A stretch of 64,000 nt of DNA from an uncultured Candidatus Binatia bacterium. Its GTDB lineage: Bacteria > Desulfobacterota > Binatia > Bin18. The translations under genes were made by a program, and so were the position numbers. Shown piece by piece: positions 41,094 through 59,527 of this stretch. The stretch is taken from assembly GCA_965200965.1 (NCBI GenBank), contig OZ241744.1:736001-800000 (forward strand), given 5' to 3'. A model generated the notes under the pieces. The model ran no database searches. It was not told the DNA's origin and saw only the letters and a program-made list of their open reading frames with translations. Each line of letters begins with the position of its first letter. Within the stretch, counting starts at the first letter, position 1.

Positions 41094-42290
41094 GTGAAAC
41101 ATGCACTCCAGGGGGTAAAGGTCCTCGATCTTACCCAGGTCATGGCGGGGCCGTTTTGCAGCCTGTTGCTGGGGGACCTTGGGGCTGAGGTGATCAAGAT
41201 CGAGCCGCCGAGTGGCGATTCAACGCGCGGCATGGGCGGACGCCAGGGCCGCGAGAGCACGGCATTCTGGGCCGTCAACCGCAACAAACGCGGCATGGTC
41301 CTCAACCTCAAACACCCCCAAGCCCAAGAGCTGGCCCGCAAGCTGGCAGCCTGGGCCGACATCTGGGTTGAGAACTATCGTCCGGGCGTCATGGACGCCT
41401 TTGGCCTGGGCTATCCCGAGCTGCGCCAACTCAACCCGGGCCTGATCTATGCCTCGGTATCGGGCTTTGGGGCCACCGGACCGTATGCCACCCAGGGCGG
41501 CTTTGACCTCATCGCTCAGGGCATGTCGGGCATTATGTCAGTGACCGGAGAAGCGGGCCGCCCGCCCGTCAAATGTGGCGTACCGATTACCGATCTGGCC
41601 GCGGCCCTGTTTACCACCCAGGCGGTTCTGGCCGCCTACATCCATCGCCACAATACGGGTCAGGGACAGCATATCGACACCTCGCTGCTCGAAGCCGGCA
41701 TCGCCCTCTCGATCTGGGAATCAACCCAGTATTTTTCGCGGGGAGAGATCCCCGAAGCAATGGGCTCGGCCCACCGCATGTCCGCCCCGTATCAGGCTAT
41801 CAAATGCGCCGACGGCTACATCACCCTCGGCGCGGCCAACACCCGCACCTGGCAACGCTTTGCCCAGGCCATTGGCCGCCCCGAGCTGCTTGAGCGGCCG
41901 GAGTACAAAAACGAGCGGCAACGGGTCCTCAACCGCCATCGCCTGACCCAGGATATTGAAGCCGTGACTGGCACACAGCCCCGCGCACACTGGCTGGCTG
42001 CACTCAAAGAAGCCGGCGTACCGTGTGGGCCGATCCTCAACTATGCCGAAGTCTTTGCCGATCCGCACATTCAGGCTCGCGGCATGGTGCAGGAGATGGA
42101 GCATCCGGTCGGGGGCACGGTCCGGGTGCTGGGCCCGGCGGTGAAACTGTCCGAGACGCCGGCCCGCCTCAGCCGGCGCTCGCCCTTATTTGGCGAGCAT
42201 ACGGCCGAGATCATGCGCGAGCTGGGCTATGCGGAGGCCGAGATCCAGGCCCTGAGCCGGGCCGGCGCGGTGGTGCTGGGAGAGGCTTAG
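41094..42290 (+). CDS. CaiB/BaiF (family III) CoA-transferase
   Basis: VLDLTQVMAGP, NRNKR, ENYRPG, SGFGATGP, PITDLAAA, GQHIDTSL. Confidence 0.92.
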   Translation: MKHALQGVKVLDLTQVMAGPFCSLLLGDLGAEVIKIEPPSGDSTRGMGGRQGRESTAFWAVNRNKRGMVLNLKHPQAQELARKLAAWADIWVENYRPGVMDAFGLGYPELRQLNPGLIYASVSGFGATGPYATQGGFDLIAQGMSGIMSVTGEAGRPPVKCGVPITDLAAALFTTQAVLAAYIHRHNTGQGQHIDTSLLEAGIALSIWESTQYFSRGEIPEAMGSAHRMSAPYQAIKCADGYITLGAANTRTWQRFAQAIGRPELLERPEYKNERQRVLNRHRLTQDIEAVTGTQPRAHWLAALKEAGVPCGPILNYAEVFADPHIQARGMVQEMEHPVGGTVRVLGPAVKLSETPARLSRRSPLFGEHTAEIMRELGYAEAEIQALSRAGAVVLGEA

Positions 42291-43027
42291 TGCTGGGCCA
42301 GGAGTTGCGCGCCATAGATGAACGCTACGCCGGCCAGGGTGGCGACCGGCAGCAGCCGGGACTGGCTGGCGTCATGGGCAGCCGGCAGCAGGCTGCTGGC
42401 ACCAAGATAGACAAACACCCCGGCAAACCAGCCCAGCAGTAAGGCCAGATGCGGGGTGGCCAGTGTGACATAGGCGTGCAGCCACACGCCCAGGAGAGGG
42501 GCCAGGGCGGTCAGACCCAGCGCACCGGTGGTGGCTCGGGTCGAGTGTCGGGTGCCGAGCATCAGACCGGCAACGCTGGCCCCGTCGGCCAGTTTATGCA
42601 GGGCCACGCCAAGCCCAATCGCCCAGCCGAGTTGGTCATGGATGTGAAACCCTTTGCCAATAGCAAAGCCGTCAAGCAGGCTGTGGACCATAATCCCCAT
42701 CGCTCCCAGCAGCCCGGCGTGGGGGGCGTGAGCGTGGTGGGCTTCCCGCTCTTGCGGGGTTTCCCGGTGGTGGGTAGCATACTCAAGGATGTAGAAACAC
42801 AGGAAGCCGAGCACGCAGGCGAGGTGCAGGTGATGGTGGTGGAGGGGGCTGTCAGCCGACTCCAGGAGGTCCTGGGCTTCGGGCAGGAGCTCCATCAGGC
42901 CGCCAGCCATCAACGCCCCGGCGCAGAAGGCGAACAGCACGCCCTGGCAGGAGTGGAAACGCAGGGCCAACAGCCCGCCGGCCAGGGTCAGGGTGCCTGT
43001 CGCGCCGGCAACCCAGAGAGCAATCAT
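42287..43027 (-). CDS. ZIP family divalent metal transporter
   Basis: HSLLDG (TM4) and LHKLADG (TM5) metal motifs, His-rich loops, LLP.AH. Confidence 0.85.
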   Translation of the reverse strand: MIALWVAGATGTLTLAGGLLALRFHSCQGVLFAFCAGALMAGGLMELLPEAQDLLESADSPLHHHHLHLACVLGFLCFYILEYATHHRETPQEREAHHAHAPHAGLLGAMGIMVHSLLDGFAIGKGFHIHDQLGWAIGLGVALHKLADGASVAGLMLGTRHSTRATTGALGLTALAPLLGVWLHAYVTLATPHLALLLGWFAGVFVYLGASSLLPAAHDASQSRLLPVATLAGVAFIYGAQLLAQH

Positions 43028-43048: not shown

Positions 43049-43065
43049 TTGCGATACAGTTGCAA
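43049..43065. promoter_or_regulatory. Putative Fur-family operator upstream of ZIP
   Basis: TTGCGA-TACAG-TTGCAA palindrome next to TATACT (-10 on the minus strand); flank ATACTATTGC shared with 48277-48286. Confidence 0.6.
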
Positions 43066-43098: not shown

Positions 43099-43956
43099 TT
43101 ATCCATTCGCCATTCTCCATTGACGGACCAGCCAGCCAGCCACCACCAGCAGGCACAGGCCGGCCGCGGCCATCTGCCCGGGCGGGGAGTCATAGTGGTT
43201 GGCCAGGACAAAGGCCGGCACGCCGGTGGCCAGCGAGACGGCCGGGGCGACGACAAACATCTGCCGACTTTCTCGACATATGTTCTTGGCCGTCAGGGCC
43301 GGCAACACCAGATTGGCAAAGCTGAACACCACGCCGGAGACATGGATGGAAAACCCGACCGCCAGCCCCAGCCAGACCGCAATCAGGCCGTTCCCCAGCT
43401 CGACCCGCAGGCCGACCGCGCGGGCCATTGCGGGGTCAATGACCAGCAGCAGGGCTTGACGGGAACAGCCCCACAGCGTTGTGGCCGTGACCAGCAGCAG
43501 GGCGGCAAAGACCCACACATCGGCCGGTCTGGCACCGATGATGGTGCTGGAGGACAGGCGGTTGATCTCTTCCATGCCGATTGGGCTGTGGGCCATCAGC
43601 AGGATGGACAGGCTGACCGACACCAGAAAGACCCAGCCGGTGAGGGCTTCGTGGGTTTCGTGGCCGCGGCTGCCGCCGGCCGTCAGCAGGGCGGCCAGCA
43701 CCGCAAACAGGCCGCCCATTGCCGAGTGGAAGAGGTCGGAGCGCCACCAACTGTGGGCATCGTGGCTGAGGAGATTGCCCAGCCAGATGCCGACAGCAAT
43801 GCCCAGCATGGACGCCTCGGAGACTGCCGCGCCGATGAAAATCTGGTCCCGGGCCACTACCAGGACACCAATCAGGGCCAGCAGCAGGCCGATCAGCCAG
43901 CCGGACACATAGGCGTGCTGAAACAGCGGCCATGTGTCAACAAAGCTGCCGATCAC
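43099..43956 (-). CDS. Metal (Zn/Mn) ABC transporter permease (ZnuB-like)
   Basis: IGVLVVARDQIFIGAAVSEASMLGIA, DPAMARAVG, LVLPALTA; many TMs. Confidence 0.85.
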   Translation of the reverse strand: MIGSFVDTWPLFQHAYVSGWLIGLLLALIGVLVVARDQIFIGAAVSEASMLGIAVGIWLGNLLSHDAHSWWRSDLFHSAMGGLFAVLAALLTAGGSRGHETHEALTGWVFLVSVSLSILLMAHSPIGMEEINRLSSSTIIGARPADVWVFAALLLVTATTLWGCSRQALLLVIDPAMARAVGLRVELGNGLIAVWLGLAVGFSIHVSGVVFSFANLVLPALTAKNICRESRQMFVVAPAVSLATGVPAFVLANHYDSPPGQMAAAGLCLLVVAGWLVRQWRMANG

Positions 43957-44696
43957 GCCAGACTCCCGACCTCGGCCCGGACCTGGGCCGTGGCTGCCCG
44001 ACCGTAGAGCTGTTCGAGCTTGTCGGCGCTCAGCATCTCGTCCCGCCGGCCGGCCGTCAGCGTCCCGCCGGCAACAAGCCCGATATGGGTGGCGTAGCGC
44101 ACCGCAATCGTCAGCTTATGGGTCACAACCAGGACGGTGTTCCGTTCCTCGGCGTGCAGGCCGGCCAGGGTGTGCAGGAACGCCTCTTCCATTGCCAAGT
44201 CAAGATGGTTGGTCGGCTCGTCAAGGAGCAGGAGTGCTGGCCGCCGGACCAGCGCCCGGGCCACCAGGGCACGCTGACGCTGGCCGCCGGACAGCGACCA
44301 GTAGTCCGTGGCGGCCAGGCCGGCCAGCCCCATTTTGTCCAAAGCCCAGGCCAGGTGCTGGCGCTGCTCGGCCCGGGTCAAGCGGATGCCAACCAGTCCC
44401 AGCCGGGCAAACTCGCCGACGGTCATGGGCAGGCTGAGGTTGATAGCGCAGCTCTGGGGGACAAAGCCGGTGCGCTCCTGCCAGCCCGATTGGGGATGAA
44501 ACGCCAGCCGTCCGACCTGGGGCTGGAGCAGTCCCAACAGGCCGGCCAACAGGGTGGTTTTGCCGGCTCCGTTTTGGCCCAGGAAGCACCAGAACTCGCC
44601 GGCACGGACGCTCAGATTCACGTCGCTGAGAACGGTCTTGCGGCCATAGCCGAGGGACAAGGCCCGGGTTTGCAGGACAATGGCTGGACCTTCCAT
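43953..44696 (-). CDS. Metal ABC transporter ATP-binding protein (ZnuC-like)
   Basis: GQNGAGKTT, GFVPQ, LSGGQRQR, LLLDEPTNHLD, VVTH. Confidence 0.88.
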   Translation of the reverse strand: MEGPAIVLQTRALSLGYGRKTVLSDVNLSVRAGEFWCFLGQNGAGKTTLLAGLLGLLQPQVGRLAFHPQSGWQERTGFVPQSCAINLSLPMTVGEFARLGLVGIRLTRAEQRQHLAWALDKMGLAGLAATDYWSLSGGQRQRALVARALVRRPALLLLDEPTNHLDLAMEEAFLHTLAGLHAEERNTVLVVTHKLTIAVRYATHIGLVAGGTLTAGRRDEMLSADKLEQLYGRAATAQVRAEVGSLA

Positions 44697-44698
44697 GT

Positions 44699-45103
44699 CT
44701 AAGTCGGGGCCGGCTGGTCGGCCTGCCGGCAGTGCAGACAGGTCTGGCACAGGCGTCGGTTCAGGAGATGGCTGGTGGCCAGGATGACTGCGCCGGTGGC
44801 CACCAAGGGGATCTCTTGGGCGTCGTACAGCCGGCCGGCGGTAATCGCCACCACCGCCGCGGCCAAGAGTGACAGGGGCCGGCCGCTTTTATGCAACCGG
44901 AATCCCCAGCATAGATTGCTCAGCGCCAGGATGACGGCAAAGCTCAACAGCACCACTTCTGTCATGGTGTCGACCAGGAAGCTCAGACCGGACACTGCCA
45001 AGACCGGTCCCAGAAGCGGGGTGAGCAGGCAATGGACGGCGCAGGCCAGGGACAGCCCGGCTCCGAGCTGATCGAGCCGCGGGCAGAAGGGAGCGTGATT
45101 CAT
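44699..45103 (-). CDS. MerC-domain membrane protein
   Basis: LDQLGAGLSLACAVHCLLTP, GFRLH, SHLLNRRLC; four TMs. Confidence 0.8.
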   Translation of the reverse strand: MNHAPFCPRLDQLGAGLSLACAVHCLLTPLLGPVLAVSGLSFLVDTMTEVVLLSFAVILALSNLCWGFRLHKSGRPLSLLAAAVVAITAGRLYDAQEIPLVATGAVILATSHLLNRRLCQTCLHCRQADQPAPT

Positions 45104-46128
45104 GGTGTCCTTCCCAGGGCCGCGGACAGTTGTGTGATGTTATAGTCAAGCATGGCGAGATAGCTGTCTGTGCCGGGCCGTGAAGCGACTTGGTCGGCCA
45201 TGTTGACGATGGTCGCGTCGGTATGCTCGGCCACAAATGCGGCATAGCGGGGGTTGTAATAGGCCGCGGCCAGAATGGCTTTGCCCTGCTTGGCCTGTAT
45301 CAGCTCGATGACGGTCTGCATGTGGCTGGTCGTGGGCGGCAGACCGGGCAGGGGCTCGAGGTAGGCAATGACATTCAGGCCGAACACGGGTGCAAAATAG
45401 GGCCAGGCGTTATGGTCGCCAACGACGTTTGCCCCGGAATGGGGCTGCATCAGGCCCAGCCAGCCGGCCAACAGGGCTTCTTCATCCTGGCTGCTGAGGA
45501 ACGCGGCCAGCCGGCCGCGTTCGGCCAGCAGGGCCAGTTTTTCAAAGTCGTACTTGTTGAAAAGCGCTTCGCCGACCAGGGCGACGCCGAGCCGGCGGCG
45601 GAAATCCTGGTAGCGCCGGGCAAAGTCCTGGCTGGCGCTCGGGCGCAGGGCCGACAGCCGGTCGCGGAGCAGGCCGGCAACGCGCAGGCCGTTCAGCGGG
45701 TTCAGCAGGTAGTGGGGGTTGCCGCGGGGATGGATATCGCCCAGAGACCGATCGACCGGTGTGCTTGGAACCTCAAGCGGAGCAATGGCGACCGAGGCAT
45801 CGATATAGCCTGGTCTGCCGGTCTGCACCCGGGCGTTACGCGAATTGAGCAGCAGGGGAGGTGCCCAGCCGACCTCCAGGTCGAGGCCGATCTGGACATA
45901 GGCGTCACAGCGACTCAGGGCTGTGATGAAGCTCGGCTTGGGAACAACAAAGTGGGCATCCTCCGTGCCTGTGGCAAACACGGTGACTGCAAGCTGCTCG
46001 CCGCCAACCTCGCGTGCCAGGCTGCCCAGCTCGGGCACGGTCGCACACAACTGGAGGGGCTGGGCGTAGGCCGGGGCGGTCAGGCCAAGACTGAGAAGAC
46101 CGAAGATGATAATACGGATGCTGAACAT
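45100..46128 (-). CDS. Metal ABC transporter substrate-binding protein (ZnuA/TroA-like)
   Basis: Signal peptide, EDAHFV, GLDLEVGW, GDIHPRGNPHYLL, EPLPGLPPT; AGGAGG RBS. Confidence 0.88.
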   Translation of the reverse strand: MFSIRIIIFGLLSLGLTAPAYAQPLQLCATVPELGSLAREVGGEQLAVTVFATGTEDAHFVVPKPSFITALSRCDAYVQIGLDLEVGWAPPLLLNSRNARVQTGRPGYIDASVAIAPLEVPSTPVDRSLGDIHPRGNPHYLLNPLNGLRVAGLLRDRLSALRPSASQDFARRYQDFRRRLGVALVGEALFNKYDFEKLALLAERGRLAAFLSSQDEEALLAGWLGLMQPHSGANVVGDHNAWPYFAPVFGLNVIAYLEPLPGLPPTTSHMQTVIELIQAKQGKAILAAAYYNPRYAAFVAEHTDATIVNMADQVASRPGTDSYLAMLDYNITQLSAALGRTP

Positions 46129-46138
46129 TGGAATCCTC

Positions 46139-47797
46139 CTAGAAGGTATGGGCCGGATGCGCCCCGTACAGCCACTCAAAGCCGAGCCATACGCTGTGAG
46201 CCTTGGAGTCGAGATGCGAGGCGTCATCAAAGTTGTACTGGAGGCGGATGCGCGAGAACTCTGAGGGCCGCCACGACAGCAGCGGGGAGAAGCGGTGGCG
46301 ATCGTCCCGAAAGGGGTCGTTCCGCCGACCGCGGATGCTGGGACCGCTGCCGCCGGCATACTCATAGCGCAGGCCGGCCGCCCAGCCGTAGCGAAAGCCG
46401 TATAGCAACTGGGTGTATAGGCCCCAGTCTGTCAGGGTCCGGCTGTGCAGGGTATCTTCATGTTCGGGGGTGTAGCGGTCGGCGTGAAAATCGCGCCGCA
46501 TGAGTTCGGTCTGCCAGCTCAGGAAGGGCCAGCCGCGGAAATTGCCGCTGGGGTTCCAACGCCACTTCATGTCCAGGCCGTAGAGCCAGGTATCGCCGTC
46601 GTCGCCGGTCGCATTTGGTCCGTACAGCCCTGAGACGCCGAATACCCCGGTGATGTCGTTGCTGAGATTGATTGAGTTGTTCCAGCGGGCCAGGTACACA
46701 AAGTCGCCAAACCCGTCAAAGACATTCCGGCCGGCCGGCCGGCAGCCGATCAGAGCGCACTCAAGGGCATGGCCGTTCCCGTTGGCGTGTTCATCTTCAT
46801 CGGCGTGCTCGTCTTCATCGGCGTGTTCATCTTCATCGGCGTGCTCGTCTTCATCGGCGTGCTCGTCTTCATCGGCGTGCTCGGCCTCGTCATGCCCTCC
46901 GCCGGCGTGACTGTGGCGTTCACCCCGGAAGCTGGTCATATTGACCCCGTTGGCGTTTTGCATGCCAAAGTGCAGCTCTGAGAACCACGGGGTGGGCGCG
47001 AGCCACGAGGCGCGGAAGCCGGTCTGGCGCATGCCGTCGCCGCCGAACAGGCGCGAGTTGATGATCGGCTGGTCAACCCAGTCCCACTGGTGGGGGTGCT
47101 GGGTGTTGATCTGGCCGAATTCGGTAAAAAAGTGACCCACTTCAAGCTGTAAATTGTAGGGCAGGGAGGTGCTGGTCAGAAAGGCTTCTTCAAGCTCGGT
47201 ACTGGTTTCACCCTCAACCGGGTCAATGGCGGTAATCAGATACAGGTCACCCCGAAAATAGGGGTCAATTGCCCCGCTCAGAGCCAACTCGGCCTGTCCG
47301 AGGGTGAAGCCGCGCTTATTCGGCTCATGCGCCCCGTTCTGGAGGGTAGACAGGGCCTCACCTTTTTCGCTTGAGCCGCCGGCGTAGAACAGGACATCGG
47401 CCGCTACATCAATCAGGCGTAGCCGGCTGCCACCGCCCAGGGTTCGTGACCACAGCCCCTCGGGCCGGGGGGCGAGCAGGGGTTGGCGGCCTTCGGCCTC
47501 GATGTCCTGAATGGCTTTGTCGAGCGGGGATTCAATTTGGGCGGCAAGGGCATCCGCCCGTCGTTTGCGGACCGCTTCAAGCTGTTGTTGTCTGCGTTTC
47601 TCGCTGGCCGTGGCCTCTTGCTGCATGGTGAGAATTGCGCTCTGCAACTGTTCAACGGTCTGCTGGAGGCTCTGGACCTGTTCTTTGAGGGCTTGGACCT
47701 CGGACGAGTCATCGGCTCGGACGTTCGGTGCGGCGAGGAGCAGCATCGCGGCACCACACATGAGCCGGCACAAGAGTCGTGTGTCTGTATTCTTCAT
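46139..47797 (-). CDS. Putative outer-membrane beta-barrel metal receptor/porin with coiled-coil N-terminus and His/acid repeat loop
   Basis: Signal peptide, coiled coil, ELALSGAIDPYF, NTQHPHQWDWVDQP, WRPSEFSRIRLQY, terminal GAHPAHTF. Confidence 0.75.
   Translation of the reverse strand: MKNTDTRLLCRLMCGAAMLLLAAPNVRADDSSEVQALKEQVQSLQQTVEQLQSAILTMQQEATASEKRRQQQLEAVRKRRADALAAQIESPLDKAIQDIEAEGRQPLLAPRPEGLWSRTLGGGSRLRLIDVAADVLFYAGGSSEKGEALSTLQNGAHEPNKRGFTLGQAELALSGAIDPYFRGDLYLITAIDPVEGETSTELEEAFLTSTSLPYNLQLEVGHFFTEFGQINTQHPHQWDWVDQPIINSRLFGGDGMRQTGFRASWLAPTPWFSELHFGMQNANGVNMTSFRGERHSHAGGGHDEAEHADEDEHADEDEHADEDEHADEDEHADEDEHANGNGHALECALIGCRPAGRNVFDGFGDFVYLARWNNSINLSNDITGVFGVSGLYGPNATGDDGDTWLYGLDMKWRWNPSGNFRGWPFLSWQTELMRRDFHADRYTPEHEDTLHSRTLTDWGLYTQLLYGFRYGWAAGLRYEYAGGSGPSIRGRRNDPFRDDRHRFSPLLSWRPSEFSRIRLQYNFDDASHLDSKAHSVWLGFEWLYGAHPAHTF
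46784..46882. repeat. 18-bp coding tandem repeat (about 5.5 copies) encoding (EHADED)n
   Basis: Unit GGCGTG(T/C)TC(A/G)TCTTCATC repeated head to tail. Confidence 0.95.
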
Positions 47798-47959
47798 TAT
47801 GCTCTTCCTGTTGGTGAAGAGGGACGACGCCGAGCGGCACGCGGCAGCATCAACTCCACTATCCCGGTTCCAACAAGGGGCGGGCATGGAGACTGAGGCC
47901 AAGCGGGCCGACTGTGTCGCCTCACTCGGTGGGTCGGTGCCGGCGTTATGGGCCGGCGA

Positions 47960-48274
47960 TCAGGACAGTAGGGATGACCCAACAGGGGGTGCGCGTGGGG
48001 AGGCCGGGCGGCGATGGCTGGCCGGGGCATGGTCATCAGCCGCCGGGCATGGGGCCGAAACGGGAAACAGATGGGCAGAGACAGTGGGGGTCCGAGCCGC
48101 AAGGGCGGGGCTCTGCCCGCCGGCCAGACACAGCACACAGGCGTACCCGCCGGGACTGCCAACAGCCCCGCTATGGATGTGGGCGGCGGTGGCGGAAGAT
48201 ACCCATACGAGGGCGAGCAGGCTCAGCAGGGCGAGACTTTTCCACCACAGTACTGTGATCTGTTTTTGCTGCAT
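47960..48274 (-). CDS. DUF2946-like leader ORF (signal peptide, HxH, CxxC, C-terminal RAPP)
   Basis: MQQKQITVLWWKSLALLSLLALVWVSSATAAHIH...CVLC...Pro-rich...PASPRAPP; first ORF after the promoter. Confidence 0.72.
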   Translation of the reverse strand: MQQKQITVLWWKSLALLSLLALVWVSSATAAHIHSGAVGSPGGYACVLCLAGGQSPALAARTPTVSAHLFPVSAPCPAADDHAPASHRRPASPRAPPVGSSLLS

Positions 48275-48276
48275 GG

Positions 48277-48315
48277 ATACTATTGCAATTCTATAGTAAA
48301 TATATGTCGTGTCAA
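48277..48315 (-). promoter_or_regulatory. Sigma70 promoter (TTGACA-16-TAGAAT) overlapped by a putative Fur-family box
   Basis: Minus strand -35 at 48310-48315 and -10 at 48288-48293; box TTGCAA-TTCTA-TAGTAA at 48283-48299. Confidence 0.6.
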
Positions 48316-48356: not shown

Positions 48357-49064
48357 TCAGGGAGCGTGCGGGTATTCGTGGCGCAAGACCTTGATGTCGT
48401 ACAGTATGTGTTCAACGATCCCTGTCTCATTGCCCCGATAGTAGGCGCGGATGCGAAACTCCGGGTCAATGAGCACAAAACGGTCGCTGTGGACGATTCG
48501 TTCGGGCCGCTCGGCCTGTCCGTGGCCGGCATGAGATCCTTCTGGCGGCGCATTCATCATCGCCAACTGAAAGCCGTCTCTGACCAGGGGCTGAATGTTG
48601 TTCAGTTCACCGGTCAGAAAAACCCAGCGCTTGGCATCTGCGCCATATCTGTCGGCATAGCCGCGGAGCCGCGGCGGCGTGTCCCATTCTGGATCAACGC
48701 TGAAGGAGACCAGGCGAACCAGGGGCTGGGCGGTCTCTTCAAGCCTGGTTTGCAACTGCGCCATCCGGGCCGACAACAGAGGGCATACGCCGGGGCAGCG
48801 GGTAAACACAAAATTTGCCACCCACATATGGCCGGCCAGCGTCTGGCGGCCAAAAGGCTGACCGCGCTGGGTCAGCAGACGAAAGTCCGGGACGGTCTGG
48901 TGGACTGGTAAACGGTCCGGCGAGCCGGGCCGCGGCGGTGTAGCAAAGCGCTGCCAGACCAGGACGCCGCTCATCCCCAGCAGGACGACAAACAAGAGCC
49001 GCCGGACGAGCCTGAGGAGGCGCAGGGGAGTGAAGGAGGCGGGCGCGCTCGGGGCATTCATCAC
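48357..49064 (-). CDS. SCO1/SenC family copper chaperone
   Basis: N-terminal TM, FTRCPGVCP (CxxxC), SVDPEWDTP, IVHSDRFVLID. Confidence 0.9.
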   Translation of the reverse strand: MMNAPSAPASFTPLRLLRLVRRLLFVVLLGMSGVLVWQRFATPPRPGSPDRLPVHQTVPDFRLLTQRGQPFGRQTLAGHMWVANFVFTRCPGVCPLLSARMAQLQTRLEETAQPLVRLVSFSVDPEWDTPPRLRGYADRYGADAKRWVFLTGELNNIQPLVRDGFQLAMMNAPPEGSHAGHGQAERPERIVHSDRFVLIDPEFRIRAYYRGNETGIVEHILYDIKVLRHEYPHAP

Positions 49065-50455
49065 GGATTTTTCCAGGTACCCTTCCCGGTGAAGGGATAC
49101 GGAAGCAGATGGTCTTCCGCCCGCAAGTCGTGGATGGAGCCACAGCCGAGGAGGCGCAGGGTATCCTCCATTTCTTTTTTCAGGATGGCAAATGCCTTGC
49201 GCACGCCGGCTTCGCCACCGGCCCCAAGTCCGTAGATATATGCCCGTCCGGCCAGCACGGCATCGGCACCGTGGGCCAGGGCAATGACCACATCTGCGCC
49301 CGACCGTATGCCGCCGTCTAACAGAATCTTCGTCGCCGAGCCTTTCAGTTCGGCCGCAATGTCTTTGAGCATGTACAAGCTCGGGTAGACCCGGTCCATC
49401 TGGCGTCCGCCGTGGTTGGATATGACAATGGCATCAGCACCGTGGGCAACCGCCAGCCGGGCATCTTCAACGCACTGGACCCCCTTGATAATAATCGGCT
49501 TCTCCTCCCCCCAGATGTGCCGAATCCAGGCCAGATGCTGCCAGGTGACGACCGAAGCGCGCAGTTGCGTCCCAATATCGGCGTAGGGCATTGGCCGCCC
49601 GTCGTTCTGGATCACATTCCTGAACTGCATCATCCCGCCGTCGGCATAGAAGCTCGTCAGCCAGGAGAGATGCCGTATCATCTGGGGTGCGAATTGCAGT
49701 TTCTGGAATGGCGTGCCGTGTATCGCTTGCGGGGCACCCATCCATTCATGCTGGGCGCGGTTCCCAGGCACCGCGGTGTCAATGGTGAGAACCAGGGCAG
49801 AGTAGCCGGCGTTTTTCGCCCGCTCAATGCCTCTGGCCGCTACTTCTTTGCCACCAACCAGATAGAGCTGATACCAGCACGGACCTTTTGAGGCCGCCCT
49901 GACCTCTTCCAGGTCAGTGCCGGTCAGCGTTGAGAGCGTGTATATCGTTCCGGCTTCACCGACAGCCTTGGCCGCGACAGCCTCTCCGTGGGGCCAGAGC
50001 AGCCTGGGGCTGCCTATCGGTCCGGCGATAACGGGCAAGTCAATGGTATGGCCCAGAAGTTCGGTCCGCATCTCCACGCCGCTGAGCTGTACCCCGGCCC
50101 TGGGCTTAAAACGTTCTCGTTGAAAGGCCGTGACGTTATCTCTGAGGGTGATCTCATTATCGGCACCGCCGCGATAATACTCCCTGACAATTGGGGGCAC
50201 GCGCTTCTCCATGACCTGGCGGAGATGATCCACGGTGACACATGTGTCTACTGCTCTGGCCCAGCGCGCAAGGCTTCTGGCGTGGGCGCGCTGGAGGCAG
50301 GGCTGAAGCAGACGCAGTCCAAGGCTTCGCCCACCTGGACGAAGACCGCTATGTTCGGCGGGGACTCCGGTTTTCTCAGCCGCCGTTGAAGACACAGGCG
50401 GCGGGCCTTGAGCGAGGGGAGATGGTTGAGGGTCGGCCATACGACGGGACTCCAT
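49061..50455 (-). CDS. FMN-dependent alpha-hydroxy acid dehydrogenase (L-lactate dehydrogenase LldD-like); start uncertain
   Basis: YYRGGADNE, WYQLY, LTIDT, IIKGV, ISNHGGRQMD, DGGIRSGADV, GRAYIYGL. Confidence 0.88.
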   Translation of the reverse strand: MESRRMADPQPSPLAQGPPPVSSTAAEKTGVPAEHSGLRPGGRSLGLRLLQPCLQRAHARSLARWARAVDTCVTVDHLRQVMEKRVPPIVREYYRGGADNEITLRDNVTAFQRERFKPRAGVQLSGVEMRTELLGHTIDLPVIAGPIGSPRLLWPHGEAVAAKAVGEAGTIYTLSTLTGTDLEEVRAASKGPCWYQLYLVGGKEVAARGIERAKNAGYSALVLTIDTAVPGNRAQHEWMGAPQAIHGTPFQKLQFAPQMIRHLSWLTSFYADGGMMQFRNVIQNDGRPMPYADIGTQLRASVVTWQHLAWIRHIWGEEKPIIIKGVQCVEDARLAVAHGADAIVISNHGGRQMDRVYPSLYMLKDIAAELKGSATKILLDGGIRSGADVVIALAHGADAVLAGRAYIYGLGAGGEAGVRKAFAILKKEMEDTLRLLGCGSIHDLRAEDHLLPYPFTGKGTWKNP

Positions 50456-50599: not shown

Positions 50600-51046
50600 A
50601 TGAAGTCATCTCAGCGCTCTCATCCAGTGGGCGACATACGCGCCGCTATTCGGGCTGCCGGGCTGCGTAGCACCATGTCCCGGGTTGCGGTGCTGAGCTA
50701 TCTGCAATCGGTGACAACCCCGCTCAGCCACGCCGAAATTTTTTATGCGCTGGAAGGACAGGGGGTTGACCGGGCCACGGTCTATCGCAACCTGGTTGAC
50801 CTGACCGAGGCCGGCCTGCTGGTACGGACCGATGTCGGCGACCATGTGTGGCGCTTTGAGTTGCGCCGGGCCGGCCAGACCGAGCGTCAGACCGAGCACC
50901 CGCACTTCATGTGTACCGACTGCGGCGGAGTCGAGTGCCTGCCCGAGATCCAGGTGCGGATTAAGCCGACCGCGGCCATCCCGCGCTCGGTGCGCGCGCA
51001 GCAGGTCGAGATGCACTTCAAGGGCCTGTGTGACCGGTGCGCCTAG
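50600..51046 (+). CDS. Fur-family transcriptional regulator (Zur-like by context)
   Basis: GLRSTMSR, DRATVYRNL, HPHFMCTDC, GLCDRC. Confidence 0.88.
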   Translation: MKSSQRSHPVGDIRAAIRAAGLRSTMSRVAVLSYLQSVTTPLSHAEIFYALEGQGVDRATVYRNLVDLTEAGLLVRTDVGDHVWRFELRRAGQTERQTEHPHFMCTDCGGVECLPEIQVRIKPTAAIPRSVRAQQVEMHFKGLCDRCA

Positions 51047-51128
51047 CTGGCTACCGGGCAGGGGAACTTCCGTTGCGGGAATCTTCGTGTATGATAGCCG
51101 CTTCCACAGGGGAAGGAGTACGAGACCG

Positions 51129-51443
51129 ATGGCAAGCCGCATCCGAAAAAACGACATGGTTCAGGTCATGGCCGGCAAAGACAAGGGCAAGACAGGCGAG
51201 GTGCTCCAGGTTTTTCCGAAAAAAAACCGGGCCACGGTCCGTGGTCTGAATATGGTCAAACGCCACCTCAAGCCGAACCAGCAACGGCAGCAGGGTGGCA
51301 TTGTTGAGAAAGAAGCGCCTCTGCACCTCTCCAACGTCATGCCGCTTGACCCCGAGGACGGCCGTCCGACCCGGGTCGGGTTCAGGATTGCCGAAAGGAA
51401 GAAGGTCCGCGTCAGCAGACGGACCGGCAAAGTGCTTGACTAG
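51129..51443 (+). CDS. rplX: 50S ribosomal protein L24 (orphan, Cys-free)
   Basis: IRKNDMVQVMAGKDKGKTG, GGIVEKEAPLHLSNV, PTRVGF; AAGGAG RBS. Confidence 0.92.
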   Translation: MASRIRKNDMVQVMAGKDKGKTGEVLQVFPKKNRATVRGLNMVKRHLKPNQQRQQGGIVEKEAPLHLSNVMPLDPEDGRPTRVGFRIAERKKVRVSRRTGKVLD

Positions 51444-51452
51444 CGCGTGCGG

Positions 51453-51608
51453 CTATTTCAGGCGGGTTTCCTTGTAGATGACGTGTTTGCGGGCAACCGG
51501 GTCGTATTTTTTGAGTTCCAGTTTATCCGTCATGGTCTTTTTGTTTTTGGTCGCAATGTAGAAGTGGCCGGTGCCGGCTGACGATTCCAGTTTGATTTTT
51601 TCGCGCAT
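51453..51608 (-). CDS. rpmG: 50S ribosomal protein L33 (C-minus form); not in the ORF track
   Basis: Manual translation: [51 protein letters not shown]. Confidence 0.93.
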
Positions 51609-51626: not shown

Positions 51627-51863
51627 CTACACTTTGATGCCGCGCCGGCGCATGTCTCTCAACACCCGCTCAATGCCCAGCTTGTCAATCGTCCGAATCC
51701 CGCGTGCGCTCAGGCGCAGGCGCACCCAGCGTTTTTCGTTCGCCACCCAGAACTTATGGGTCTGCATGTTTGGAAGAAAACGCCGTTTTGTCTTATTGTT
51801 GGCGTGGGATACATTATTCCCGGTACGCGGGCGTTTGCCAGTGACTGGACACAGTCTTGACAT
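51627..51863 (-). CDS. rpmB: 50S ribosomal protein L28 (long C-minus form)
   Basis: [30 protein letters not shown]...[11 protein letters not shown]. Confidence 0.95.
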
Positions 51864-51947
51864 GAAAACGTCTCCTCAGGATTGTCTTGTCGCCGGCCTG
51901 TATAGCATGGCCGGCCGCGGAGGGCCAGGGTGGGCAGCCCGGTCGGC

Positions 51948-54078: not shown

Positions 54079-56670
54079 CTACTCATCAACAGAGAAGCGG
54101 CCTTCCCAGATGGGGCCTGCCCCGGGCACATACTGGCCGGTCCTGATGGACCTGAGGGCGTACTTGGGGAGTTCGCGGATCGCAAGGCATTGTTGCCCGG
54201 CCTGCCGGCCGGCCTCTGTGAAGCGAAAGTCAAGGTTGTCGAACCCGTACTGCTGGCGATTGTCGGGCAGGTCGTTCTCGTCAACCGGGATCAGGTGCAG
54301 GAAGAATATGGGGTCCATGTCATCTCCGCCGCATGGCTCTTTAACATATATCAGGGCATTTTTGTTGATATAAATATCGTATTTGGAGCGGAGGATGGGC
54401 TGGCCGGCCTCTGTGATCAGTCTGTCAAGATCTGCCAGGCTTGGCCGTGCCAGCATAACGTGGTCAAGCATGATGTGACCTCCGTGACTTCGTTCATGGT
54501 CAAAGAGTTCCAGTTGTAGACGCTTGCCGGCGACGGCGGATAGTGGGGAGACGATCAGGTCGAACTCTTCAGCACGCTCGCCGCTTGGGCTGCTCCACTC
54601 GCCAGCCCCGTACCAAACCGCAGCTTCTTCGCCATCGGCCAACAAACGCAACCCGACACGAGACCCCGATCCACCGGCGAGCAGAAATACCAGAGATTGG
54701 TCGGCTTTTGCGGTGAACGCTGGCGAGAGCGCCTTTCCGGTAGTCTTATCGCCGTGGTCTGGGTGATAGCTCGTCAGAAAGCCGGGGCCAACATGCCCGA
54801 AAATCGGCAGTTGGCCCGTGTAGAATGTCTGCTGGCCGTGGTTGGTCATTGCCTCGCCTGTGACCTGCCAGCCGTCCATGCCACCCTCGAAGCGTCCGAG
54901 AAACTGCTCGCCAACAAAGTGGAAGTAAGGCTTGACGCTGAAACGATTGTCGGCAGGCCGGGTCATCGAAAAGCGGCTCCTGGCCCGCAGGTCGCGGCCG
55001 ACAAAATGCTCGTTGACCCACTGATGATCGCCAGCACTAAAGGGCATCCATAGCTCGGGGCCGATTTTCAGAGCATAGTGTGCGCTGGCGAGGGCCTCAG
55101 CTTGGTTGGAGGCAGAAGGATAGGGACGAAAGTTGACGCCGCGTCGCTGGAGATATCCCGGGGGAGGAAAGCGGTCGTGTGCCATGATCCGCTCGTGGTT
55201 GGGACGCGTGACCGGATTGTGCGCCACCGTCGCGTCAGCCAAACCATTGACGTCAATGATTGTCAGGTCTCGGAGATAATAGGGCGAGACGCCAATGGAG
55301 GCGAGGGCTGCCACGGCATTGTCGGGAATCACCCCAGGTTCCAGCTTCTCGTACTCCTTCCATCCCGCTATCCGCTCGGTGAGCGCGTGTTGGAAAAGCC
55401 CGGCGCGTAATCCGACGAACTGGCGGGCAGACTGCTCGCGCAGGGCGTTGGAGATGGCGACGAGTGCTGGCATCCCCGGCGCGGTGAGCAGCCAAGCCGC
55501 GTTCTTTTCATTGAGTTCGATGGAGAGCCTGCCGGGGAGGAAGCGAAGCCCGTCGTCTTTGAACAGTAAAGCGCCTTGAAGTGCGCCAGCATAAAACAGC
55601 ACTGGCACAAAGAGAACCAGGCTGAACGCCCTCGGTCCGGCCCACCGGGTCCATGAAGAAGTCGTTCGGAGGCGATTCGATATCCCGGAGGCGAGGTGCG
55701 TGATGCCCTCGGCTCCGGGGACCGCCAGTAGAGGCCAGTAAAAGTCCAGCGGGCGATACTCAAAAACATCGCCGCCTATGCGCATCAGGTAGAGTACATG
55801 GAAGGAGATGCAGAGCAGCCCCAGGGCGTAAGTCCCGTCTCTATAGCCTATCCAGCGTTTTCGCACGGCCACGCACGCGAGTGGAATTAGCAGGTATAGG
55901 CCGGTCTCCAGCACCGCGGCCCAGAGATAACGAAAGCCGGACTCGTACCACGGTCGCACATGCTTGGCATAGTAGGTATTTGGCAGCCATGCGCCGTAAT
56001 ACCCGTAGCGGAACAGAAAATGGGCTGCGATAAGGACGAAGAACGGCCCTGCCAGAAATATCGCCTCCCGCCAGTCCAGCCGGTGGGCGGTGAGGAGACG
56101 GTGGGCGGCGAACCAGCCGAAACAGCAGGCCGCCAGCATGAGACCCTCGGGGCGGGTCAGGGCGGCGGCAGCCAGGCTCAGCGACGCTATCAGCAGTCCC
56201 CAGGGCCTGTCTCTGTGAATGCCCAGGCAGACCACCGCCACGACAATGAAGAACGTAAATTGCCGCGTTTCCAGTCCGCCGCCCGAGGTCCATACGGCAA
56301 AGGTCGCGCTGCTGCACACCAGACCCAGCCCCATCCAGGCGACGAGGCCCCTGTTCGGCAGGGAGGGCATCCGGGCGATCCACCACAGCATCACGGCCAC
56401 AGTTCCGCCTGTGTAGCCTACCGATAAGCACGGCGCGGCGTCTTCCGGGCGCACGCCAAGGATTCCCCATATGGCCGCAAGCTCCAGAATCCACAGGAAG
56501 TTGGTATAGCCCTCCACATACTCGCCCGGATTGAACACCAGGCCGTTGCCCTCGATCAGGTTGCGGGCGTAACGAAAGCTGATGAAGGCGTCATCGGTGA
56601 AAAACTCGGCCACCCCGGCGAGCCCCCCCAGTAAGGCCAACCACGGCAGGCAGCATAGAAGGTGGGTCAT
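54079..56670 (-). CDS. GT-C-fold membrane glycosyltransferase (arabinofuranosyltransferase-like) with periplasmic C-terminal domains
   Basis: TDDAFISFRYARNL..G.GLVFNPGEYVEGYTN, GLET, LTRPEG, LPNTYYAK, GGDVF..R, ID.NGLAD. Confidence 0.75.
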   Translation of the reverse strand: MTHLLCCLPWLALLGGLAGVAEFFTDDAFISFRYARNLIEGNGLVFNPGEYVEGYTNFLWILELAAIWGILGVRPEDAAPCLSVGYTGGTVAVMLWWIARMPSLPNRGLVAWMGLGLVCSSATFAVWTSGGGLETRQFTFFIVVAVVCLGIHRDRPWGLLIASLSLAAAALTRPEGLMLAACCFGWFAAHRLLTAHRLDWREAIFLAGPFFVLIAAHFLFRYGYYGAWLPNTYYAKHVRPWYESGFRYLWAAVLETGLYLLIPLACVAVRKRWIGYRDGTYALGLLCISFHVLYLMRIGGDVFEYRPLDFYWPLLAVPGAEGITHLASGISNRLRTTSSWTRWAGPRAFSLVLFVPVLFYAGALQGALLFKDDGLRFLPGRLSIELNEKNAAWLLTAPGMPALVAISNALREQSARQFVGLRAGLFQHALTERIAGWKEYEKLEPGVIPDNAVAALASIGVSPYYLRDLTIIDVNGLADATVAHNPVTRPNHERIMAHDRFPPPGYLQRRGVNFRPYPSASNQAEALASAHYALKIGPELWMPFSAGDHQWVNEHFVGRDLRARSRFSMTRPADNRFSVKPYFHFVGEQFLGRFEGGMDGWQVTGEAMTNHGQQTFYTGQLPIFGHVGPGFLTSYHPDHGDKTTGKALSPAFTAKADQSLVFLLAGGSGSRVGLRLLADGEEAAVWYGAGEWSSPSGERAEEFDLIVSPLSAVAGKRLQLELFDHERSHGGHIMLDHVMLARPSLADLDRLITEAGQPILRSKYDIYINKNALIYVKEPCGGDDMDPIFFLHLIPVDENDLPDNRQQYGFDNLDFRFTEAGRQAGQQCLAIRELPKYALRSIRTGQYVPGAGPIWEGRFSVDE

Positions 56671-56713
56671 GCGGACTTTTTGCAGTGTGGCGAGACAGTT
56701 TGTCACAATTGTC

Positions 56714-57003
56714 TATTTGCGTGTGGGCTGTGTGGCCGACCGGAGGCTGAGCCGGGGCGGCTACTCGTCAATAGAGAAGCGGCCTTCCCAGATGGGGCCT
56801 GCCCCGGGCACATACTGGCCGGTCCTGATGGACCTGAGGGCGTACTTGGGGAGTTCGCGGATCGCAAGGCATTGTTGCCCGGCCTGCCGGCCGGCCTCTG
56901 TGAAGCGAAAGTCAAGGTTGTCGAACCCGTACTGCTGGCGATTGTCGGGCAGGTCGTTCTCGTCAACCGGGATCAGGTGCAGGAAGAATATGGGGTCCAT
57001 GTC
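56714..57003. repeat. 290-bp direct repeat, copy 2 (includes an orphan copy of the last codons of the UbiA-family gene)
   Basis: TATTTGCGTGTGGGCTGTGTGGCCGACCGGAGGCTGA...GGGGTCCATGTC, offset 2682 bp from copy 1. Confidence 0.93.
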
Positions 57004-58788
57004 GTCCTGACTGCACGAATCTTTGGCGTATATCGCTCGATTGTCGTGGATATACACATTATAGTGAGAACGGATGATGGGCTCACCGGCTGCCGTGACG
57101 ATTGCGGTGAGGGAGGCCGCCTTATTTCGGACATAGCTGTCCACATCAAAGTGTCCTGGGGTGACGCGCAATATGAGGCCATCGGCCAACTCCGCCACGA
57201 TCTCCACGCCCGGCAAAGCCCGAAGATGAAAGGAGCCGTAGTCGTGCTGAAGCCAATCTCCTCCATCGAACCATACAATATACATGTCCTCATTGACTGC
57301 TTCTGCCGCTTGAACAAAATAGGTTGGTGCGCCAAGCGGTGGATCGCACTGAAAGCCAGCAGGATCGGAGGCGCACTTTTGGAGCGATTGAACCAACCGC
57401 TGCTCTGTCTCGTGTAGAACGATAATATTTCGCCGAACCGTCGTATAGATATACACTGCAAAAGGATCATTACTGTATACCCAGCCGGTGAGGGGATGTT
57501 CTCGCAGATACGACAAGACTGCCGGGTGCGTAAACCTCCTGCTTGTCAAACTCCATCGAAAATACTCTGAACCGTCACTGTTCGCCGCATATATTCCACG
57601 CCCAGTAACGACAGCAGAGCCAGCCAGCCAGAGGGCAAGCGGCACGGCCATGACCGCGGTCAGCGGGCTTTTTCCTGCTCCCCTCCCTGACCATCTGTCC
57701 AGGGCAAATACAACGATGAACAGAAGCGGAATATAGGCGGGAGAAATATGCCTGCGAGCTACCCCTACGGGAGTGTTGGATGCAGCCACGAGGAAGAAAG
57801 CAAGATAGATCAGGACGAAAGCCCCAAAAAGCATGAGCGGATTCCAGTCAGGCCGGGTCTGAGCTTCCCGGCGTGAGCGTAGAAAGCCATATGCTACGGC
57901 TATGGCGAGTGCTAGCAGGGCTATTCCTGCCGCTGTCGCAACTCCAGTTGGAACAGGATTGAGGACTGGGACCGCCCAGCTGGCCAGGACATCAAGGGTG
58001 TACTGCGCGTACTCCGCAAAGGAAGCCAAGGGGGGACTGCTGCGTGCAGACCCGGTAGGCGTTCCTGAGACTATCATGTTTCTCAACAGCCAGAGGCCAA
58101 GCGGCGTCACAGCAATGAACGCATAGGCGGCACTATGCCGGACCTTTTCCCGGAGGGACTTCGTGCTCTTGAAGAGCAGGACCAGCCCTACGGTGATGAC
58201 GATGGAGAGGCCGATATATCTGGTGAGGCAGGCGAGGGCGGTGAAGAGAGCTGAGCGGATCAGAGAGGAGCGGTGCTCGGTGTTGAGGAAGTTCTCTGTC
58301 TCAACCAGGGCAAGCACGGCAAACAGGATGAAGACGGGCTCTGACATCACCCAGGCTGCGTTCTGTAAGAGTGGGGCTGACAGCGTAATGGCAAGACAGC
58401 CCCAGAGAAGAAGGACCCGGGAGTATATGCTTTTGCGAAGCCACCGGCCGGCAACGAAGATGGTCAGCCCGAAGGCGGCCGCATTCACCGGGCCGGCGAC
58501 CTCGGCGGGGTCAAACACGAACAGGCTGGCCAGTGCGAGCAGACTCGGAAACAGGGGTGGCCAGTGTGTATACCAGTTTCCGTCATACGCCTGGACAAAG
58601 CCATTGCCTGCCAGCAGGTTCCGAGCAACGGCTATGTAGGTGACGGAATCCGGGTCTAATGCCGCCCCGTAGGTGACTTGATGCAGCAGAACGAGGACCG
58701 TGCCGAGAACGCTCAGGGAGGCCAGCAACAGCGTGAAAGCAAGCGGGCCGGGGTGTTGCAGGCCCCAGAGAGAACGTGAGGTGTTCAC
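56761..58788 (-). CDS. GT-C-fold membrane glycosyltransferase (PMT/ArnT-like)
   Basis: DPDSVTYIAVARNL..G.G, HWPPLFP, MSEPVF, LTRYIG, WLLRN; multiple TMs; start uncertain (GTG 58788). Confidence 0.72.
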   Translation of the reverse strand: MNTSRSLWGLQHPGPLAFTLLLASLSVLGTVLVLLHQVTYGAALDPDSVTYIAVARNLLAGNGFVQAYDGNWYTHWPPLFPSLLALASLFVFDPAEVAGPVNAAAFGLTIFVAGRWLRKSIYSRVLLLWGCLAITLSAPLLQNAAWVMSEPVFILFAVLALVETENFLNTEHRSSLIRSALFTALACLTRYIGLSIVITVGLVLLFKSTKSLREKVRHSAAYAFIAVTPLGLWLLRNMIVSGTPTGSARSSPPLASFAEYAQYTLDVLASWAVPVLNPVPTGVATAAGIALLALAIAVAYGFLRSRREAQTRPDWNPLMLFGAFVLIYLAFFLVAASNTPVGVARRHISPAYIPLLFIVVFALDRWSGRGAGKSPLTAVMAVPLALWLAGSAVVTGRGIYAANSDGSEYFRWSLTSRRFTHPAVLSYLREHPLTGWVYSNDPFAVYIYTTVRRNIIVLHETEQRLVQSLQKCASDPAGFQCDPPLGAPTYFVQAAEAVNEDMYIVWFDGGDWLQHDYGSFHLRALPGVEIVAELADGLILRVTPGHFDVDSYVRNKAASLTAIVTAAGEPIIRSHYNVYIHDNRAIYAKDSCSQDDMDPIFFLHLIPVDENDLPDNRQQYGFDNLDFRFTEAGRQAGQQCLAIRELPKYALRSIRTGQYVPGAGPIWEGRFSIDE

Positions 58789-58789
58789 C

Positions 58790-59527
58790 TTAGAGATCCA
58801 GTCGTTTGAAAAGGCTCTCCGGAATGCCTCTGATGATGAGCATGATGTATTTCCAGAACCACGGCAGGTAGACCCGGGGTTTTTTCTTGCCAAGGCCCTT
58901 GACAATTCCCGCGGCGACTGTTTCGGGCCTTGCCCACAGCGGCCCTTTCTTGAACCCGGCGGTCATCGGCGTATCGACCAAACCGGGTTTGATGTCGAGC
59001 ACCTGGACACCCGACTGGTGGAGCCGGTTTCTGAGTCCCTGCAAGAGAACCGACAGCATGGCCTTGGCCGCGCCATAGACATAGTTGGACCGCCGGCCGC
59101 GTTCACCGGCTACACTGGTCATGACGGCAATGGTTCCGCTTTGCTGTCTCTCCAGTCTGTTAGCAAGGTGGGTCAGCAGCGAAGCCGTGCCGATAGCGTT
59201 GGTGTTGAGGGCTGCCAGGGTTGTGGTGAAGTCTGCTTCGCAGGCGTGTTGGTCTGGCAAGGTCCCGTGGGCGATCAGGGCGACATCAATGGTTCCGAGG
59301 GCCGCGAACGCGGCGTTGAGGGCCGCTTCGTGCGATTCAAAATCCTGAATGTCGAGCCGACCGTACTTGACCGAAGCGGCTCCTCGAATTTTGAGATCCT
59401 CAGCCAAAGACGAGAGGCGTTCCTGGTTGCGGGCTATCAGATACAGCTGGCTGCCACGCTGGGCAAAGGTTCTGGCCGTGGCTTGGGCGATGGCCGAGGT
59501 TGCCCCAATGATGAGAATATGCTGCAC
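58790..59527 (-). CDS. DprE2-like SDR (polyprenylphosphoryl-2-ketopentose reductase)
   Basis: IIGATSAIA, SVAGERGRRSNYVYGAAK, KPGLVDTPMT; directly downstream of the dprE1-like gene. Confidence 0.8.
   Translation of the reverse strand: MQHILIIGATSAIAQATARTFAQRGSQLYLIARNQERLSSLAEDLKIRGAASVKYGRLDIQDFESHEAALNAAFAALGTIDVALIAHGTLPDQHACEADFTTTLAALNTNAIGTASLLTHLANRLERQQSGTIAVMTSVAGERGRRSNYVYGAAKAMLSVLLQGLRNRLHQSGVQVLDIKPGLVDTPMTAGFKKGPLWARPETVAAGIVKGLGKKKPRVYLPWFWKYIMLIIRGIPESLFKRLDL

Follow-up and report, generated by a model that had tools for sequence, protein, structure and literature searches.

The question raised by this locus is why a cysteine-free gene for ribosomal protein uL24 (rplX) lies outside the spc operon, directly behind a gene for a Fur-family regulator. 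The window, the whole stretch of 64,000 nucleotides that was analyzed (G000:C1:736001-800000), belongs to a host genome that consists of one contig and is 99.3% complete. The features around rplX are the following.

50600..51046, + strand: gene for a Fur-family regulator (PF01475), native to the family, predicted Zur
51087..51095, + strand: GTGTATGAT, -10-like element of a predicted own rplX promoter, invariant in 7/7 genomes of the host genus g1
51114-51118, + strand: AGGAG, Shine-Dalgarno-like site ahead of rplX and 3' of GTGTATGAT
51129..51443, + strand: rplX, sole uL24 gene of the genome, 104 aa, no Cys, likely xenolog (TIGR01079, PF17136 + KOW)
51453..51608, - strand: rpmG, sole bL33 gene, no Cys, native tuf-trnW-secE position empty
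51627..51863, - strand: rpmB, sole bL28 gene, one Cys, no CxxC
51900..51908, - strand: ATGCTATAC, predicted extended -10-like element of rpmB-rpmG, with TGCTAT invariant in 14/14 cassette copies

An earlier note on this DNA had described a full-length L24 and proposed that it is an additional member of the ribosomal proteins with swappable C+ and C- paralogs. The description was borne out by our data. The 104-aa rplX product passed the curated TIGR01079 cut-off of 53.7 bits with 128.7 bits in a profile search and contains the PF17136 and KOW domains at full length, which places it among the bacterial uL24 proteins; the closest titled records were from Candidatus Binatia. The claimed 82 bp between the Fur-like gene and rplX are present (ORF end at 51046, rplX start at 51129), as is the convergence with rpmG and rpmB, and the absence of rplN and rplE as neighbors was confirmed, both genes being located about 2.7 Mb from rplX. 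MPLDPEDG was also correctly said to replace a CxxC motif: relatives carry CxxC at the aligned position, and their two CxxC positions correspond to MPLDPEDG and VSRRTG in the Cys-free rplX product. The best structural match was the solved chain 3j3v_U (E=1e-35), which we take to be Bacillus subtilis uL24. Because this chain reads MPLDPKTG at the first motif position, MPLDPxxG is, judged by sequence, an ordinary housekeeping form of L24, a point missed by the earlier note. The g1 L24 thus resembles this housekeeping C- uL24 in having MPLDP at the first motif position, but differs from the housekeeping C- uL24 proteins of relatives outside Binatia, whose rplX lies in spc, in being encoded elsewhere.

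In the host genome rplN and rplE are located at G000:C1:3457680-3458609 and are separated by 21 bp, with no rplX between them. A second L24 in the genome was found neither by tblastn with its own L24 and the L24 sequences of four relatives nor by a TIGR01079 search, whose second match had an E-value of 0.34 and covered model positions 3-35 only. The same arrangement was seen throughout the genus: in 8/8 g1 genomes the rplN-rplE gap measures 17-63 bp and lacks rplX, and in 7/8 the Cys-free rplX lies beside a Cys-poor rpmB-rpmG pair and the Fur-family/znuABC-like locus. The eighth genome (G001, 87% complete) gave no match for rplX, rpmG, rpmB or the Fur-family gene. In 3/3 runs from 2 studies, a single contig spanned the rplX locus, and likewise the junction of rplN and rplE; the contigs are nearly identical, and the source sample may be among them. 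The earlier note had itself named an spc operon lacking rplX, read as simple translocation, as the outcome that would speak against a swappable paralog. Since spc is without rplX and the copy at 51129 is alone in the genome, the paralog claim has to be given up, whereas simple translocation disagrees with a tree position outside Binatia (see below). What stands of the proposal is that L24 occurs in C+ and C- forms and that the Fur-family neighbor is part of a zinc-uptake locus for which Zur-type boxes are predicted. The main ribosomal cluster (locus L005) has peculiarities of its own. An ORF of fusA size is missing between rpsG and tuf, as is one of adk size after secY. The space between rpsD and rpoA is occupied by an unrelated insertion that contains a nuclease-like motif (recognized by eye) and is in the reading frame of rpoA according to the ORF call.

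L005, 3248-3468, 14605-15607 and 17174-18300: noted stretches of this cluster

Among 401 Binatia genomes screened, 384 had an L24 match and four of these had two, but an intact C+/C- L24 pair occurred in none of the 401. In two genomes (G156, G237) the second L24 is a 5'-truncated remnant adjoining an rpmB-rpmG cassette. The second L24 of G129 has its own rplN and rplE, is 45% identical to the query and is likely located on a contaminant contig, and the double match in G288 represents two fragments at contig ends. In a second phylum (that of G404), none of the 387 genomes with a match, out of 401, had two.

The zinc-related part of the window contains the following features.

42287..43027, - strand: gene for a ZIP-family zinc transporter (PF02535), downstream of the palindrome at 43049
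43049..43065, no strand assigned: predicted Zur-type palindrome TTGCGAT-ACA-GTTGCAA with a single mismatch (the genome contains 2 sites of this kind)
43111..48274, - strand: metal-uptake operon for a small ORF, a 551-aa His/acidic-repeat protein and ZnuA-like, MerC-like, ZnuC-like and ZnuB-like proteins
48283..48299, no strand assigned: predicted Zur-type palindrome over the -10 region of the uptake-operon promoter TTGACA-16-TAGAAT, 2 mismatches

With each named NCBIfam Fur/PerR/Irr model that it matched, the product of the Fur-family gene stayed under the cut-off. Orthologs are present in 39/55 genomes of the family, and znuB/znuC-like genes adjoin 6/10 of the non-g8 loci (g8 being a second genus treated below). 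The gene is linked to znuABC-like genes and to a palindromic box at zinc-uptake promoters, as in the linkage test for Zur, and is predicted to encode Zur. The palindrome search was modeled on the Desulfovibrio Zur box ATGCAACnnnGTTGCAT (PMC545781); the pattern was loosened from this consensus after the sites had been seen, so that the box is a prediction. With this pattern, 0-2 mismatches were counted at the uptake genes (1 mismatch for the 48283 palindrome in 5/5 other g1 genomes covering the site) versus 4-6 for the best sites upstream of rplX, rpmB and fur, where no Zur-type box was found in 7/7 g1 genomes. A 25-bp position weight matrix built from six uptake-promoter sites gave a high score for its own training site only, and the conserved GTTCTCATTGCAA upstream of fur, considered as a full box, is better taken as a -35 region.

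Several other features of the zinc locus deserve mention. The 551-aa protein (46139-47794, - strand) had no Pfam or NCBIfam match, contains a tandem (DEDEHA)n His/acidic repeat and is encoded before znuA in the predicted Zur-controlled operon; it likely serves zinc uptake at the outer membrane. In four g8 loci, homologs are encoded close to the gene for the Fur-family protein. An FMN-dependent dehydrogenase gene and a SCO1/SenC gene lie inside the zinc locus (48357-50455, - strand), and a perfect TTGCAATTATATTGCAA palindrome absent here is present upstream of the dehydrogenase gene in three g1 genomes (L179:10631, L180:10477, L181:1273).

With a predicted zur immediately upstream, ZnuABC-like and ZIP genes close by and the genes for C- L28 and L33, which are classic partners in such swaps, adjoining it, rplX is placed as would be expected if it were a Zur-repressed C- paralog that is exchanged for a C+ L24 under zinc starvation today. 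Against this speak the missing partner in a genome of one contig and 99.3% completeness, the spc operon without rplX in 8/8 genomes of the genus, the lack of Zur-type boxes at rplX, rpmB and fur in 7/7 genomes, and the distance of 1.6 kb between rplX and fur in G004; we regard such a switch as highly improbable. The rplX and rpmB genes are presumably constitutive sole copies, a reading that fits because both have their own conserved -10-like elements and no Zur-type box in 7/7 genomes. The rplX gene represents a permanent swap and no new regulatory switch.

To which state this swap goes back is indicated by the other Binatia, for which L24 loci were obtained for 30 of 39 matches. The order rplN-rplX-rplE was intact at 23/23 non-g1 loci. 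Two CxxC motifs were present in 19/20 L24 proteins outside g1 and g8, all encoded inside spc, and the CxxC pair of the relatives aligns with CPAC and CAKC of the solved chain 4zer_1Y. The ancestral spc-encoded L24 of Binatia is thus predicted to have been a zinc-binding CxxC-CxxC protein. Outside Binatia, rplN or rplE lies beside rplX at 76/76 genome loci and 80/80 metagenome loci. An independent C- form occurs elsewhere in Binatia, family f5 having a one-Cys L24 encoded inside spc (L026/G036, L184/G129).

The phylogeny of L24, a check suggested by the earlier note, gave different results for the two parts of the protein. In residues 4-71, with the Cys columns excluded, g1 L24 is 59-60% identical to the family and 59% to unrelated phyla, while g8 L24 is 76% identical to the family. 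In the N-terminal tree, the 31 non-g1 Binatia rows formed a starred clade (100/97) excluding g1; AU tests on residues 4-71 rejected monophyly of the family (p=0.019) and a g1+g8 group (p=0.012). In the control tree of L14+L5, g1 was placed inside the family at 100/99. For g1 L24 the gene tree is therefore in conflict with the species tree (AU p=0.019 against native L14+L5, on a short alignment). The two L24 trees comprised 68 and 34 columns and were calculated with LG+G4 without a mixture model, and the AU p-values are modest; fragments, duplicates and a suspected contaminant copy were omitted, and the outgroup, with rows picked by similarity to the query, was thinned from 73 to 34 rows. The N-terminal part of g1 L24 also contains non-Binatia residues (GKDKGKTGE, RGLN, NQQQQQGG). 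The suggested phylogeny thus placed this part outside Binatia but did not yield the donor lineage: no close donor of g1 rplX outside the family was found among genome contigs, metagenome contigs, 90% protein clusters and 50% representatives, the best relatives outside the family being about 63-65% identical and mostly alphaproteobacteria-like. Because the N-terminal part lies outside Binatia in the tree while L14+L5 are native, rplX likely represents a xenologous displacement of the spc copy.

The L24 of genus g8 is encoded in spc, is Cys-free and has the look of a mosaic (loci L017, L019, L022, L182, L183, L205-L209). Diagnostic sites are family-type at 14/15 positions in residues 6-70 and g1-type at 10/12 positions in residues 74-102 (permutation p=0.003; p=0.043 once the four Cys columns were removed). 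In the C-terminal tree g1 and g8 grouped at 89/97 (not starred), and a group of g8 with the family was rejected (p=0.014). The motif S[RK]RTG.VLD is confined to g1/g8-type rows among 307; an alphaproteobacteria-like sequence (P0100) equals g1 in closeness to the g8 C-terminus (0.69). The g8 protein thus looks like a family-type N-terminal two thirds joined to a g1-type C-terminal third. A sister relationship of g1 and g8 was not resolved by L14+L5, the shared L31B being its sole support.

The shared C-terminal third, which in both genera lacks one residue and ends in S[RK]RTG.VLD, could also mean that the native rplX lost its cysteines in a common ancestor of g1 and g8 and left spc in g1, where its N-terminal part then diverged fast. 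The next-best database matches, g8-type sequences with 59-68% identity, and the missing donor agree with such a simple translocation. It is hard to reconcile with the N-terminal part of g1 L24 being as far from the family (0.59-0.60) as from unrelated phyla (0.59), with the non-Binatia residues in this part and the AU p-values of 0.012-0.019, and with the adjoining rpmB-rpmG being of foreign type as well, and we consider it unlikely. Displacement by a xenolog remains our preferred explanation.

The adjoining rpmB-rpmG pair is also found as a cassette outside g1. The named outside relatives nearest to rpmB are mostly Gammaproteobacteria (72-74%), with one Acidimicrobiia label at 77%, and L28 and L33 of relatives in the family are CxxC-CxxC forms. 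The native rpmG slot between tuf and the tRNA-Trp gene is empty in the host and filled in G014. A g1-type rpmB(-rpmG) cassette is present in 7/28 g8 genomes (L175, L190-L195), three of which also contain rplX remnants. Its best DNA identity to g1 is 96-97% versus 76-78% for rplN (three genomes tested), and because of this difference a recent transfer from a g1-type source into g8 is indicated by the sequences. The fur and znu genes were not carried along. Of the native genes in the recipients, rpmB is intact in G241 and G191, altered by a Cys-to-Tyr exchange in G175 and broken in G156; no native rpmB was found in G020, G237 or G281. For rpmG, G156 has an intact native copy and G237 one with a Cys-to-Tyr exchange, the native copies of G175 and G191 are broken, and none was found in G020 or G281; in G241 the native rpmG has an insertion in a motif, and the incoming rpmG is truncated. 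Both C+ and C- forms are consequently intact for L28 in G241 and G191 and for L33 in G156 (native loci L196-L204). A long one-Cys L28 of G038 (L057) is another independent C- form in Binatia.

Besides L24, also L28, L31, L32 and L33 are motif-free in the host genome, and S4, S14, S18 and L36 have kept their Cys motifs. L31 (G000:C1:721810-722076) is of the long motif-free type and encoded upstream of prfA (locus set L217 or L218); all 6 g1 and all 9 g8 sequences that were read are of this type, and the 16 other sequences of the family are of the short Cys-rich type. L32 (G000:C1:1387126-1387320) is Cys-free and encoded between a ferredoxin-like and a hisG-like ORF, as named by sequence reading; the neighbors of the g8 L32 gene map elsewhere in the host genome (L217, L218). 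L32 is Cys-free in 5/5 g1 sequences and of the CxxC-CxxC type in 8/8 g8 and 5/5 other class sequences, plus row G025, in counts based on pattern-extracted sequences, which 11/30 loci did not yield. L31 and L32 were presumably replaced separately from rplX and rpmB-rpmG.

Taken together, we think it probable that the sole uL24 of this genome is a transferred, Cys-free ordinary ribosomal protein with its own promoter that displaced a CxxC-CxxC copy in spc. According to this model, a foreign C- rplX and a C- rpmB-rpmG pair of gammaproteobacterial type would have been inserted beside the native Zur-like/znuABC locus and would have coexisted for a time with the C+ originals. Such an ancestral two-copy stage is conjectural, and none of the Binatia genomes screened had intact L24 genes of both types. 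In g1, rplX would then have been cleanly deleted from spc and native rpmB and rpmG lost, and in g8 the same duplication was likely resolved by recombination of the C- 3' third into the spc rplX. The benefit would likely be a 50S subunit predicted to need up to five fewer zinc ions, with zinc scarcity presumably driving the C- replacements.

With respect to this cause, though compatible with the transfer history, zinc might be incidental, the C- forms having been fixed by drift or by a relaxed need for thermostabilization and the Zur-like neighborhood being due to chance. The text of PMC10450194 links C- isoforms, including that of uL24, to lower growth temperature; in addition, four other Zn/Fe-S ribosomal proteins stay C+, the cassette genes have no Zur boxes, and g8 recipients took up the cassette without fur or znu. 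On the other hand, the direction is C+ to C- in all five replacements, the predicted zinc regulator is no more than about 1.3 kb away from three of them, and decay in g8 recipients mostly hits native C+ copies, twice by Cys-to-Tyr exchange. We see an incidental role of zinc as a real possibility, if one that we hold with some doubt. A more far-reaching idea is that this Binatia lineage strips zinc from the 50S subunit under zinc scarcity, that rplX was first a Zur-controlled spare, and that three stages are visible: displacement in g1, gene conversion in g8, and fresh transfer with C+ decay. We put this forward as tentative and rather doubtful; if true, L24 would be a former member of the C+/C- switch.

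For S4 a corresponding route, path B, has been described, in which a C- copy gained elsewhere by horizontal transfer took over from the operon-encoded protein, whose C+ gene disappeared from the operon (PMC3087516). Its traits recur in g1, where the sole C- copy lies outside the operon and the in-operon gene is gone, and relatives have the C+ gene in the operon. Unlike S4 path B, the protein concerned is the uL24 of the spc operon ('L24' gives no match in the main text of PMC3087516), and the g1/g8 case adds replacement of L28, L31, L32 and L33, the apparently mosaic in-operon allele of g8 and a recent re-transfer between genera. Zur-regulated C- paralogs are known for L28, L31, L32, L33, L36, S14 and S18, according to PMC3087516. 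The host resembles these systems in having genes for C- zinc-ribbon proteins near a Fur-family regulator and zinc uptake genes, and some g8 genomes hold C+ and C- L28 or L33 together; in contrast to them, the host genes are sole copies with no C+ partner and no Zur-type box upstream.

C+ and C- isoforms of uL24 have already been published, and the protein binds zinc in Thermus thermophilus, with CXXC-CXXC defining C+ as in the present case (PMC10450194). That study treats the isoforms as temperature indicators; its main text does not contain 'paralog', and 'horizontal' appears in reference titles only. No report of an out-of-operon or Zur-regulated L24 was found in a literature search, most subscription papers being outside its scope; the displacement path is thus known for S4 with no L24 report found, and Figure 2 or the supplements of PMC10450194 could include 'both' uL24 cases. 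Transfer of rplX among operon-wide transfers (PMC4490635) is a different case. Table S3 of PMC3353972 lists duplicated L24 in 3 of 995 genomes, one alphaproteobacterium, one spirochaete and Haliangium ochraceum, the first two probably corresponding to the pair of mass duplications that its text mentions. H. ochraceum DSM 14365 (supplement 5, row 691) is listed with a lone second L24(2) and is the one candidate encountered for a true L24 paralog.

The likely foreign, out-of-operon sole L24 would add a further core protein to the displacement path known from S4. The gene is among the most operon-bound ribosomal genes, every outside relative fetched being located in spc, and its product is an early-binding 23S rRNA protein, which probably can be exchanged across large distances. 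L24 is a common marker in concatenated alignments, and here it appears to be foreign in g1 and mosaic in g8. Together, g1 and g8 offer a natural before/during/after series for C+ to C- replacement in which zinc sparing and temperature are testable as causes. Elsewhere in the window, two adjacent large membrane-protein ORFs (54079-58905, - strand) share a near-identical C-terminal stretch of about 70 aa.
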